Below are positions 46,825 to 57,776 of a DNA stretch of 64,000 nt, piece after piece. Made by a program: the position numbers and the translations under genes. The notes under the pieces are model-generated. The model was not told the DNA's origin. It was given only the letters and a program-made list of their open reading frames with translations, and ran no database searches. How positions within the stretch are numbered: position 1 is the first letter of the stretch; every line of letters begins with the position of its first letter. The DNA is from Eledone cirrhosa (taxonomy: Eukaryota), in contig OZ024755.1 of NCBI GenBank assembly GCA_964016885.1, forward strand, positions 26,102,001-26,166,000, read 5' to 3'.

Positions 46825-47066
46825 GATTAAAACAAGTAACATTCAGAGACCAACCATATGTGAGAAAAACCACAGACCCTCCATCTCAACTCACCTTTTG
46901 AAAAGCAGAAGAACTGCGAAACCGGTAAAGGAACCAAATAAATATATATATTTTTTTTAAATAAGACTCCAGTTGCATTTTCGATTTCATCTCTTTTTCT
47001 TTATACTTTCTCTCGTGTAGGACACCTCGGTTATTTTTCATTTTGTAAAAAAAACCTCACTTTCTA
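46825..47066 (+). mobile_element. ~240-bp hammerhead-bearing element, copy 1 (Penelope pLTR/retrozyme-like)
   Basis: Repeated at 53628, 53781, 55958, 56725, 57557; TA tracts on both sides. Confidence 0.8.
46894..46931 (+). ncRNA. Minimal type I hammerhead ribozyme, U3-A8 variant
   Basis: CCTT TTGAAAA GCAG-AAGAA-CTGC GAAA CCGG TA AAGG; predicted cleavage after GUA (46927). Confidence 0.75.
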
Positions 47067-47994
47067 ATATATATATATATATATATATATATATATATAT
47101 ATATATATATACATATATATATATATATATATATATATATATATATATATATATATATATATACATATATATATATATATATATATACATATATATATAT
47201 ATATATATATATATATATACATATATATATACATATATTTATATATATAGATATATATATACATATATATATATATATATATATATATATATATATATAT
47301 ATATATACATATATTTATATATATATATATATATACATATATTTATATATACATATATATATATATATATATATATATATATACATATATTTATATATAC
47401 ATATATATATATATATACATATATATATATATATATATACATATATTTATATATACATATATATATATATATACATATATATACATATATATACATACTT
47501 ATATATATACATATATATACATACTTATATATATATATATACATATATATACATATATATACATATATATATACATATATATATACATATATATATATAC
47601 ATATATATACATATATATATATACATATATATACATATATATATATACATATATATACATATATATATATACATATATATATATACATATATATATACAT
47701 ATATATACATATATATATATACATATATATACATACATATATATACATCATCATCATCATCATCATCACCGTTTTACGTCCGTTCTTCCACGCTAGCATG
47801 GGTTAGACGGGTTGTCCTGTTGTGGGCAGTGTCTGGTCGGCTGACCATGCCTTGCTCATACAGGAACTGATCTGGCTTGATTTCTATACATATATATATA
47901 TACATATATATACATACATATATATACATACATATATATACATACATATATATACATATATATACATATATATACATACATATATATACATATA

Positions 47995-50900
47995 TAACTT
48001 TGAATAACTTTGAAATGTTTTGGCCAGTATTGGCCCAGGCCATGTCTAACTTAATAGCACCACCTGGCGAAGTCTTTCAATTCAGGATTTGGGCACAATG
48101 GCCCATTCGAGAAGAGAATTACTGTTTGCGGAGACATATCCGGGTGTGGGTGGTTTGTCCGGGATTACTTGGAGGAATTTGTCCAAAGACTTCTTGAATT
48201 TTGTGTGGTCAGTTTCTGTTTTGACGTGTCCTGGTGTGATGTTGAAGAGAGCAGGGCCGATTGAGGTGAAATAATTGTGCCGTATTGTTGTTATGAGTTG
48301 CGATTTAGATTTTTGAATGGGACGGATAGCACGGGGCCCAAGCCTTGGGTGTATCTTGAAGGCGATGCCAACATCATTTGGGCAGTGATGATGGAACATT
48401 TTCCACATCATGCAGATAATATAACGCTCACGGCGACGTTGGAGTGAGTAAAGTTTCAGGTTTTCTAATCGACCCCAGTAGTCAAGGTCTGACATGCCAT
48501 CTATCTTTTTCGTGATTGCCCTTTGAGGAGCTTCAAGTTTCATGATACTTTGTTTCATGTGGGGAGACCACAGTGGACAACAGTATTCAAGGTGTGGTCG
48601 GGCGAAAGTAGAGAAGAGAAGGATAATGGTGCGGGAATCTCTCGACTGGAAGGTTCTGAGGATCCAGGAACACATTCTGCGGGCCATGTCAACTTTGCTG
48701 CTTATATGCGTGGTCCAGCTTATGTTGCTGTCCACGGTTACTCCCAAGTCTCTGATGTTGTTAGATGCCACGAGAGTTTCCCCGGAGGGAAGGGAGTACG
48801 GGAGTTTCAGAGCATCCTCTTTTCCAAAGTGGATCAGTTCGAATTTGTCTTCGTTCAGTAACATGTTGTTCTTTTCTGCCCATTGGGTAACAGCCAGTAG
48901 GTCTGACTGAAGGCTTATCCGGTCATCCACGCCATTGATGACCTTTTGGAGCTTGGAATCATCAGCGAAAATTTTAATGTTGCTGTGTTTGATGATGTCA
49001 GTGATGTCATTAATATAGATGATGAAGAGAAGTGGGCCCAACACAGTGCCTTGTGGGACCCCACTACTGACTTTGGCTGGGCTTGATTTGACTCCCTCAA
49101 CTACAACATGTTGGGTTCTGTTTGACAGGAAGCTCTTGATCCACTGCAGCAGCTTTCCAGTGACACCAATATTGGACAGCTTTCTCAGTAGAATGTTATG
49201 ATCAACCCTGTCAAAGGCCTTGCTGAAATCAAGGTAGATAACATCAGTGTTGGAACCCTCTCCCAAGGCTCTCAAAATGTCATCAAAGTGATGCAGTAGC
49301 TGCGTCAGGCAATCCCTTCCATTACGGAATCCATGCTGGTTGGAGTTCAGCATATTGTTACTCTCAAGGAAGTGGGTCATTCGCGATCTCACCACTCTCT
49401 CAAATACCTTAATGATATGAGAGGTGAGTGAGATTGGACGGTAATTCACGGCAAGGGATTTGTTTCCCTTTTTGAAAACTGGGACAACAGACTGGGATAG
49501 AAGGTTTTCTGGCACATATCCAGCATCCAGTGAGTTCCGCCACAGATTGGCAAGAGGAGATGCAAGTTGGTGTTGACACGCCTTCAAGACACAAGCAGCG
49601 AACCTATCGGGACCTACTGCTGAATTATGCTTGATTTCCTTTATTGCCGCCAAGACATCAGGGGCGCCAAACGTTATGTCCGATAAGGTGTAATGGGGAG
49701 TAACATCGCCGATACAGCCCAGATCGGCCATATCAGGATTGCTGAAAACAGCGCAGTATTGTTTCTGCAGTATCTCACCCATGGTTTTAGCATTGTCTTG
49801 AAGAGTGCCATTTTCATCAATTAGAGGGCCAACAGTAGAGCCAGTGATTTTGTGTTTTTTTGCAAATGAAAAGAACACTTTGGGATTGAGTTTGATCTTC
49901 TCAATGGCCCAGGCCTCTTCAGCTCTTCTCTGATTGTTGATGAGGGACATTATGTTGTTTTGGAGGTTATGTTTTTTAATCTCTAGTGATGAAATGGCAG
50001 TCAAGTTTGATGTGTTGCTGCTGACAGTATTTCAGCTTGTTGATTTTTTTGTTCGTTCTCTTAATTTTTCTGATGAGTGTTTTTCTATTTCTAGGGATTC
50101 TGCTCTTAGATTTGTTTATAGTTCTTAATGGGGTGTGTTTAGCACATATGTTTGTAACAGTGTCCACAAATGTCTGCCAGGACTTTTTGATGTTAGTGGG
50201 TGTATGAGTGTGCGTGAAGGACCAGTCGACATGTGCAAGATCATGACTGATCGCTTCCCAGTTTGCATTGTGGAAATCCATNNNNNNNNNNNNNNNNNNN
50301 NNNNNNNNNNNNNNNNNNNNNNNNNNNNNNNNNNNNNNNNNNNNNNNNNNNNNNNNNNNNNNNNNNNNNNNNNNNNNNNNNNNNNNNNNNNNNNNNNNNN
50401 NNNNNNNNNNNNNNNNNNNNNNNNNNNNNNNNNNNNNNNNNNNNNNNNNNNNNNNNNNNNNNNNNNNNNNNNNNNNNNNNNATCTCACCCATGGTTTTAG
50501 CATTGTCTTGAAGAGTGCCATTTTCATCAATTAGAGGGCCAACAGTAGAGCCAGTGATTTTGTGTTTTTTTGCAAATGAAAAGAACACTTTGGGATTGAG
50601 TTTGATCTTCTCAATGGCCCAGGCCTCTTCAGCTCTTCTCTGATTGTTGATGAGGGACATTATGTTGTTTTGGAGGTTATGTTTTTTAATCTCTAGTGAT
50701 GAAATGGCAGTCAAGTTGATGTGTTGCTGCTGACAGTATTTCAGCTTGTTGATTTTTTTGTTCGTTCTCTTAATTTTTCTGATGAGTGTTTTTCTATTTC
50801 TAGGGATTCTGCTCTTAGATTTGTTTATAGTTCTTAATGGGGTGTGTTTAGCACATATGTTTGTAACAGTGTCCACAAATGTCTGCCAGGACTTTTTGAT

Positions 50901-51135
50901 GTTAGTGGGTGTATGAGTGTGCGTGAAGGACCAGTCGACATGTGCAAGATCATGACTGATCGCTTCCCAGTTTGCATTGTGGAAATCCATAGCGTCAAAC
51001 GGATGGACAGGAGAGATGACATTGGGTTTGTATATTGGACGGTGGAATCTCAGATCACAGAGAACCATGTCATGATCAGAGAGTAGAGTTTTCTCCACTG
51101 CAATATTGTGGGATATTGTCAGTGTGATTGCTGAA
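47995..51135 (-). mobile_element. CR1-group LINE, 5'-truncated, with intact RT (ORF 48082-50004), spanning an assembly gap
   Basis: NYRPISLTS, QHGF, YLDFSKAFD, SGVPQGTVLGPLLF, FADD, RPHLEYC..WSP, YSLQRRRER; tail (TTCAAAGTTA)x2; TA tracts at both ends. Confidence 0.95.
50282..50481. other. Assembly gap (200 N)
   Basis: Seen directly. Confidence 0.99.
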
Positions 51136-56028: not shown

Positions 56029-56066
56029 CCTTTACCGGTTTCGCAGTTCTTCTGCTTTTCAAAAGG
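56029..56066 (-). ncRNA. Minimal type I hammerhead ribozyme, U3-A8 variant
   Basis: Exact reverse complement of 46894-46931. Confidence 0.75.
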
Positions 56067-56790
56067 TGAGTTGAGATGGAGGGTCTCTGGTTTTTCTCAC
56101 ATATGGTTGGTCTCTGAATGTTACTTGTTTTAATCACGTTTATTAAAAAAAAGCCTTCGTGAGCCACCTTTTTTTAAAGTAAAGAAATTCAAACACTCAC
56201 ACACACACACACACACACACACACACACACACACACACACACACACACACACACACACACACACACACACACACACACACAAATAAACACACATATCTTT
56301 GCTTTCTTTATTCAATACAAAATCTGAATTCTGACACCCCAGCGAACTAACCATATTCACTGAACCAGAACAATTCTCCCATCCCTTTCTCTTGACCATT
56401 ATCTTTCACTTATCAAAAAATTCTCTAAAAAGGCTACAGAATGGATTTCCAAGTAAGGGCACAAAAATTTAATGAAAATTTGTTCACATGACAGCCATAA
56501 TTTCATTTATAACCAACCAAAAAAAAGCCTTCGTGAGCCTCCTTTTTTCAAGTAAAAAGAAATTCAAACACTCATATATGAAAAAACAACCTGTGACCTC
56601 CCCCCCCCCCCTCTTATTTGAAGAACTATTGTAACGCGAACAGGCGCGAAATTTATTAAAATTATTGACAAACCAATTGAATTACTTCTCGAAAAACCTA
56701 GCATTTCGAGCCACTTTTTCCATATAAAACAAGTAACATTCAGAGACCAACCAGATGTGAGAAAAACCACAGACCCTCCATCTCAACTCA

Positions 56791-56828
56791 CCTTTTGAAA
56801 AGCAGAAGAACTGCGAAACCGGTAAAGG
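56791..56828 (+). ncRNA. Minimal type I hammerhead ribozyme, U3-A8 variant
   Basis: Identical to 46894-46931. Confidence 0.75.
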
Positions 56829-57776
56829 AACCAAATAAATATATATATATTTTTTTTTAAATAAGACTCCAGTTGCATTTTCGATTTCATCCCTTTTTCT
56901 TTATACTTTCACTCGTGTAGGACACCTCGGTTATTTTTCATTTTGTAAAAAAAACCTCACTTTCTGATATATGTATATATATATATATATGTATATATGT
57001 ATATATATATGTATATATATATATATATATATATATATATATGTATGTATGTATATATATATGTATATATATATATATATATATATATATATATATATAT
57101 ATGTATATATATATATATATATATGTATATATATATATATATATATATATATATATATATATCATATATATATATATATATACATATATATATATACATA
57201 TATATATATACATATATATATATATATATATATATACATATATATATATATACATATATATATATATACATATATATATATATATATACACATATATATA
57301 TATACATATATATATATATATACATATATATACATATATATACATATATATATATATATACATATATATATATATATACATATATATATATATATACATA
57401 TATATATATACATATATATATATATATACATATATATATATATATATATATATATATACATATATATATATACATATATATATATATATATATACATATA
57501 TATATATATATACATATATATATATATATATATATACATATATATATATATATATATTAGAAAGTGAGGCTTTTTTTACAAAATGAAAAATAACCGAGGT
57601 GTCCTACACGAGTGAAAGTATAAAGAAAAAGAGATGAAATCGAAAATGCAACTGGAGTCTTATTTTTTTTTTAAATATATATATTGTTTCTTCATCCACT
57701 CTCATCCCAGGAACAGTTTTGATAGCGCTAGTTTGTGATTTAAATTCGGGAATTTTATATTCTTTGAATGAAAAGA

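Follow-up and report, generated by a model that had tools for sequence, protein, structure and literature searches.

The 64,000-nucleotide (nt) stretch of the Eledone cirrhosa genome analysed here, called the window below, contains several copies of a short repeat with a compact hammerhead ribozyme motif, in which the canonical C3-G8 pair of the core is replaced by U3-A8. These copies are most probably truncated pseudo-long terminal repeats (pLTRs) of an abundant Penelope-like element (PLE) of the Neptune type, carrying a U3-A8 type I hammerhead which likely cleaves slowly and only as a dimer. The probability of this reading, which is drawn from comparisons of sequences, is estimated at about 0.85.

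The reference unit has a length of 243 nt and lies at positions 46826-47068. The 32-nt core pattern has exactly four matches in the window, starting at 46894, 53815 and 56791 on the forward strand and occupying 56035-56066 on the reverse strand, and none in 100 shuffles, which confirms the original prediction that the CCTT-TTGAAAA core is identical in four copies. The whole unit is present at six places with 93-100% identity. Besides the reference copy, these are five matches of 93-97% identity, three with the core and two, both inverted pieces (53627-53782 and 57556-57685), without it. The copies represent four insertions in (TA)n: a solo copy, two head-to-head pairs (53627-53928 and 55952-56968), and the fragment at 57556-57685, which is fused to another repeat. 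Repeat and Rfam scans of the whole window were dominated by (TA)n, and a descriptor scan returned the four U3-A8 motifs, one C3-G8 motif (57777-57860), and no others.

All core positions of a hammerhead are present in the motif (N3-UGAN-N8-A ... GAAA ... UH), together with a Watson-Crick 3:8 pair and G10.1-C11.1; their positions in the first copy are given in Table 1. The monomer cannot close helix III, which would leave a 2-nt loop. The ACCGGU duplex has a predicted energy of -8.3 kcal/mol and forms in the fold of two copies. The motif agrees with a minimal type I hammerhead whose helix III is palindromic and which likely acts only as a dimer. Such motifs are numerous in the genome, which comprises 3.0 Gb and 1,796 contigs: there are 10,444 occurrences of the exact 36-nt core (control 0), 12,515 of its relaxed version, and 17,841 of a 20-nt word of the 3′ flank.

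The parent of these copies was traced through the dispersed loci. A GIY-YIG frame lies upstream of the unit in at least two of 30 such loci (L003 and L026), and their extension revealed reverse transcriptase (RT) motifs, a CX4CxxC linker, and GIY-YIG in this order. In a search for RT, 150 of 23,590 candidates were scored, and a 775-codon open frame was counted by eye in 26 of the 150 rows. All eight retrieved regions hold this frame together with a piece of the pLTR. Seven of these RT-endonuclease (RT-EN) open reading frames (ORFs) are 98.5-99.9% identical, which indicates that the family is young. The spacing of the pLTRs in L058 gives a parent length of about 4.7 kb, and the pLTR continues into ORF1 in L058, L060, and L061. 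In L060, ORF1 encodes 400 amino acids (aa), starts 27 nt past the end of the unit, and overlaps the RT frame in the -1 phase at U UUU UUA (L060:2066-2140). We infer that a -1 frameshift at this slip site joins the two frames, while the structure downstream of it is weak in simple folding. The layout of the parent is thus pLTR, ORF1 (400 aa), UUUUUUA, RT/Cys-linker/GIY-YIG (775 codons), 3′ untranslated region (UTR), and pLTR, and the window sequence at 56229-56905 runs upstream into this 3′ UTR. In Pfam, RVT_1 scored just under the cut-off (E 1.5e-6) and GIY-YIG above it, and the closest protein relatives share 56-75% identity. The element shows the characteristics of endonuclease-containing Penelope-like elements, namely an RT with the DKG motif (also one of the search patterns for related RT loci) followed by a C-terminal GIY-YIG, as well as direct and inverted pLTRs, 5′ truncation, and an optional tail; the CX4CxxC linker in its translation between RT and EN and its (TA)n flanks are traits of Neptune. 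The expected autonomous RT/GIY-YIG partner carrying this pLTR was found, with RT, linker, and GIY-YIG upstream of the unit and more than 10,000 cores in the genome. The proposed element family stands, but its 240 bp do not represent the whole element, since the parent is about 4.7 kb long. Upstream of the TATA box of the longest window copy (56560-56730, +), two promoter-like words can be seen, CCAAT and GCGCGAAA, the latter of which we take to be an E2F-like word.

The best evidence for function comes from other families. A pattern excluding helix II of the window family (family A) found 3,326 further U3-A8 motifs (control 12). Among the 100 matches listed, two types were recognized by eye: family B, with helix II GAUGG/CCAUC and C as H17, and family C, with helix II GAUG/CAUC, mostly U or C at N7, and A or U as H17. 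Between A and B/C, two pairs of helix II change on both sides (C-G to A-U and A-U to U-A) and one pair of helix I changes as well, while U3 and A8 stay; across the three families N7 (A/U/C) and H17 (A/C/U) vary. A helix II which is closed by G10.1-C11.1 and covaries in this way is characteristic of a hammerhead. The matching C3-G8 pattern with an equally compact helix III gave 24 matches (control 5), none of them with the full A, B, or C sequence, against 12,515 and 3,326 of the U3-A8 type. A CUGANGA search would accordingly miss most of the compact hammerheads of this genome, as was foreseen. A full element also exists for family B, its RT-EN frame sharing 57% identity with that of family A, and no RT-EN match was found for family C within about 5.7 kb upstream in the four loci that were extended. 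All three families have the word TCAAC shortly upstream of the core (examples for B/C are L222:643 and 5427, and L229:5723).

The comparison was widened to 87 related loci from public contigs, which were scanned with any base allowed at positions 3 and 8. The scan gave 22 matches in 20 loci, namely 16 C-G, four U-A, one A-U, and one G-C, without any mismatch, whereas 10 shuffles yielded 0.2 matches per round. One more U3-A8 candidate (L219) came from a relaxed scan of 11 loci. A midpoint-rooted RT tree was built from 28 rows: three own sequences, the 20 loci with a match, and five close loci in which no ribozyme was detected in the DNA available for each; it did not include the remaining 62 loci. 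In this tree, families A and B are joined (100/99) inside a clade (100/99) whose two other ribozyme-bearing members have C3-G8. Other U3-A8 cores are located elsewhere in the tree, one of them as sister (100/100) to a C3-G8 element. Because the U3-A8 cores fall in separate places, this pair likely arose more than once. Such covariation supports selection on the 3:8 pair, and the proposal that U3-A8 is a compensatory core pair in a hammerhead-type motif is upheld by it.

Several loci deserve a separate mention. The A3-U8 core belongs to a hammerhead at L180:1964-2005 (+) with a 5-bp helix I and a 6-bp helix II, about 80 nt past the GIY-YIG stop; the RT of L180 is sister to a U3-A8 element, and a literature search on G3-C8 and A3-U8 spellings did not return this hammerhead. 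The G3-C8 core occurs at L186:113-155 (+), with a 4-bp helix I and a 7-bp helix II, upstream of a Penelope-like RT. Seven contigs with Penelope-like RTs (L215-L221) come from bacterial genome bins and likely represent contamination from an animal host. A further small family of repeats, seen at eight loci (L110-L112, L116, L117, L120, L127, and L130), carries a canonical hammerhead whose helix I measures 5-6 bp.

Two other origins of the copies have to be considered. Their identity could result from a recent local duplication of a chance look-alike devoid of ribozyme function. The folding of the monomer is indeed unremarkable, and some local kinship exists, because a rare variant at unit position 48 was seen in two of 41 aligned copies, both of them in the window. 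Local duplication is nevertheless not the explanation, because the 10,444 exact cores are dispersed across the genome and dispersed copies reach 97% identity to the first copy, the same as its window neighbours; cross-family covariation also speaks against it, and this suggestion can be regarded as refuted. It is very improbable, too, that the unit is an independent non-autonomous retrozyme replicating from cleavage to cleavage through circular RNA. The unit is short and non-coding and carries a hammerhead, and the neighbouring C3-G8 repeat (57686-58046, +) looks like a non-LTR retrozyme: it has the same helix I, an 8-nt palindromic insert in helix III, and a long helix II, and its family with the longer helix III has 1,156 exact matches, often in head-to-tail arrays of about 483 bp. 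Non-LTR retrozymes form head-to-tail non-coding repeats outside of a coding element, whereas the U3-A8 unit is continuous with ORF1 and the 3′ UTR of such an element, occurs solo or head-to-head in the examined loci, and has ends which do not fit the cut site.

Whether the motif cleaves is a more demanding question, and several results weigh against it. Helix I has 4 bp in the window copies, and there the predicted CCTT/AAGG pairing holds; it does not hold family-wide, as 42 of 82 sampled copies read an outer A, which leaves 3 bp and an A.G mismatch. In families B and C only two contiguous pairs remain, with one compensatory change. No loop-loop contact is evident by eye, the monomer folds no better than shuffles (z -0.94), and the Rfam hammerhead models match neither the motif nor its canonical neighbour at E ≤ 10. 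Decay was examined in the first 100 copies on contig 1, picked by the flank word and not by the core, 82 of which cover the core. None of these 82 copies has a substitution at U3 or at A8, and 70 of them retain the entire core. The substitution rate is 1.22% in the core, 2.69% in the stems, 1.81% at free positions, and 2.77% in the flank. The core is below the flank (p 0.005), but the difference weakens within base types (A/T p 0.06, G/C p 0.40), the free positions are likewise low, and the stems mutate like the flanks (p 0.92). The prospect that the core and stems would decay as freely as the flanks thus came true for the stems and less clearly for the core, and the comparison is equivocal, which would be expected from neutral decay of inserted copies. 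The Neptune assignment, in turn, depends on the Cys linker and the architecture and not on a tree with named Neptune references. Part of this evidence would also fit a non-cleaving, hammerhead-derived fold that serves the RNA leader in another way, for instance by binding protein or as a promoter/splice element: genomic copies probably derive almost only from uncut RNA, helix I has 2-3 bp in many members, and ribozyme mutants of an Anolis element had no effect on insertion in vitro (PMC11167929). Against such a fold, families with RTs of 57% identity in this genome and of about 25-50% identity elsewhere have all retained every catalytic position, an H17 other than G, and Watson-Crick pairing at 3:8, and such conservation is expected from selection on catalysis. 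The non-cleaving fold is therefore considered improbable, and self-cleavage by a real and functional minimal hammerhead remains the likely reading.

The ends of the copies are informative about the way they were made. In the same sample, 3′ ends are found at unit position 243 in 53 of 100 copies and at 180 in 35, and 19 of 20 multi-copy loci combine one 242/243 end with one 180 end. Among the 5′ ends, 48 fall at unit 28-39, joined to varied flanks, 24 run upstream beyond the unit, and three lie at unit 100-106, two of them exactly at the cut site. Of the 76 ends inside the unit, 48 belong to this hotspot (p 4e-33 under a uniform distribution). With TATAAAA at unit 1-7, the hotspot follows the TATA box at a distance of about 30 nt, which is the usual spacing between a TATA box and the start of transcription. 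We infer that transcription starts at the hotspot. As 48 of 100 copies begin there and only two at the cut, it is likely that uncut leader RNA serves as the template, with copying from an internal start to the 5′ end of this RNA. The contig depth of two runs rises near the hotspot, which probably reflects the same genomic copies.

The following mechanism may be proposed on this basis. The pLTR promoter would start the RNA about 30 nt after the TATA box, the endonuclease would nick (TA)n DNA, and the RT would begin inside the RNA at one of two TA-rich sites. A start in the 5′ leader would yield solo copies of about 210 nt which run off the 5′ end of the RNA, and a start in the 3′ pLTR would yield long copies. 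Two ribozymes could pair through ACCGGU, perhaps with the help of the protein of the element, and cut after GUA. Such cleavage would split tandem read-through RNA or remove priming sites, and for this reason cut RNA would rarely be copied.

The cleavage triplet is also a candidate splice donor. It stands in the context CCG|GTAAAG, and a pyrimidine tract with TAG|G at its end follows at a distance of 96 nt; in families B and C, too, the ribozyme is followed by a comparable tract and TAG. The donor is weak and is poor in family B (GTCATT), the ribozyme needs the GU anyway, and the conservation of the pyrimidine tract may be due to a role in RT start and not in splicing. The exon-exon junction pattern has three genome-wide matches, none of which is a clean intronless copy, although these elements normally keep their introns. 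One of them, L133, was rejected as a spliced copy: its junction is inverted and matches at three additional bases, a result roughly expected by chance in a set of more than 12,000 copies. Two runs of unknown kind had contigs without a joint at the candidate intron, which carries no information on splicing. A donor further upstream, at 46860, was discarded, as the first exon would then have a length of 4-5 nt. It is conceivable, though doubtful, that one GU serves as a three-way switch between splicing, dimer self-cleavage, and retrotransposition, with the weaker U3-A8 selected to slow the cleavage. If so, splicing would destroy the ribozyme to make a translated mRNA, and unspliced RNA would self-cleave as a dimer or be copied from internal starts to the cap.

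Several known systems resemble the one described here. U3-A8 itself is not novel, as it is in print for natural hammerheads (Perreault et al. 2011, PMC3088659) and for Penelope elements (Cervera and De la Pena 2014, PMC4209133); what is new is the very abundant Neptune-type family carrying it. Perreault et al. called natural U3-A8 hammerheads with the same covariation rare and noted earlier reports of activity in vitro, whereas in the Eledone genome this pair is the most frequent form among the compact patterns used in the searches and occurs in two related retroelement families. Cervera and De la Pena described U3-A8 in the minimal hammerheads of Schistosoma mansoni Cercyon (about 1,300 matches), as well as the dimer dependence and low activity of Penelope minimal hammerheads; dimer cleavage is reviewed in PMC6765202. 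Cercyon shares the type I topology, short helix I, palindromic helix III, G10.1-C11.1, U3-A8, the pLTR location, and mostly truncated solo or opposite-strand copies. The Eledone motif differs by a 4-bp helix II without an extra base between A9 and 10.1, a 4-nt palindromic insert in helix III, a host with the Neptune-type Cys linker, and more than 10,000 nearly identical copies, while the roughly 1,300 of Cercyon are heterogeneous. In the Neptune clade (Craig et al. 2021, PMC8557442), RT is followed by a CX2-5CxxC linker and GIY-YIG, and an ORF1 with frameshift may be present. The Eledone element agrees with this layout and also shares (TA)n as target, pLTRs in tandem and inverted arrangement, and a tail, the tail being 63 nt here and 30-40 nt in Neptune. 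For the Anolis Poseidon element PAc, Frangieh et al. (2024, PMC11167929) reported protein-assisted cleavage as well as an internal RT start, a tail, and a template which is not cut. The two elements have in common a tail delimited by two alternative 3′ ends, AT-rich targets, and uncut RNA as template, but PAc has C3-G8, a single ORF overlapping the ribozyme, and RT starts inside this ORF, whereas both 3′ ends of the Eledone element lie upstream of ORF1. In Penelope of Drosophila virilis, a leader intron of 75 nt, located 46 nt past the start site (PMC2377424), also overlaps the ribozyme region; its 3′ end abuts helix I and the promoter is TATA-less (PMC2377424, PMC4209133), unlike the candidate donor described above, which is the cleavage triplet itself behind a TATA box. 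A preprint links retrozymes to pLTRs (bioRxiv 10.64898/2026.07.22.740005). A literature search combining octopus, Penelope, and hammerhead gave no paper on this family, which does not establish its absence from print.

Table 1. Features of the window related to the U3-A8 repeat and its neighbour.
Feature	Position	Strand	Basis or remark
Solo pLTR copy (unit 1-243) in (TA)n	46826-47068	+	unit match and flanks
Minimal type I hammerhead motif	46894-46931	+	pattern and descriptor match; U3 46898, A8 46903, H17 A46927
Helix II of this motif	46905-46917		strands 46905-08 and 46914-17
GAAA of this motif	46918-21
Palindromic helix III, ACCGGT	46921-46926		predicted cut after 46927
Candidate 96-nt GT..AG intron	46925-47020	+	putative; donor GT is ribozyme G16.2-U16.1, acceptor after pyrimidine tract
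63-nt tail	47005-47068	+	between alternative 3′ ends (unit 180 and 243), likely two RT start sites
Inverted 5′-truncated copy (unit 88-243)	53627-53782	-	without full core; head-to-head with 53781-53928
Copy from 5′-end hotspot (unit 35-180)	53781-53928	+	hammerhead 53815-53852
Inverted copy (unit 1-181)	55952-56134	-	hammerhead 56029-56066; head-to-head with 56145-56968
Longer copy, 3′ UTR remnant and pLTR	56145-56968	+	hammerhead 56791-56828
TATAAAA in the longer copy	56723-56729	+	predicted start site near 56753
Inverted fragment (unit 116-243)	57556-57685	-	without ribozyme
Different repeat family, tandem unit of ~483 bp	57686-58046	+	canonical C3-G8 hammerhead 57777-57860

No PLE ORF was found within the window. 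A 649-codon frame at 48085-50031 (-) contains a reverse transcriptase domain (RVT_1, E 1e-31) and likely belongs to a long interspersed nuclear element; it was rejected as the PLE partner, as it is part of a different element. A long hairpin at 35027-35133 gives a below-threshold MIR5284 score on both strands and is likely a small inverted-repeat element. The N gap at 50282-50481 has about 500 bp of repeated sequence on its two sides, which may come from an overlap in the assembly.

The genome of Eledone cirrhosa thus adds scale to a known ribozyme variant, with a young element that has more than 10,000 U3-A8 ribozymes. Censuses based on CUGANGA would miss most of the hammerheads counted in it. 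From DNA alone, the ends of the copies locate a likely transcription start and two likely RT start sites, and they point to uncut RNA as the template. The U3-A8 element, its sister family with a different stem, and the C3-G8 neighbour form a natural set for probing the role of the hammerhead in Penelope elements.

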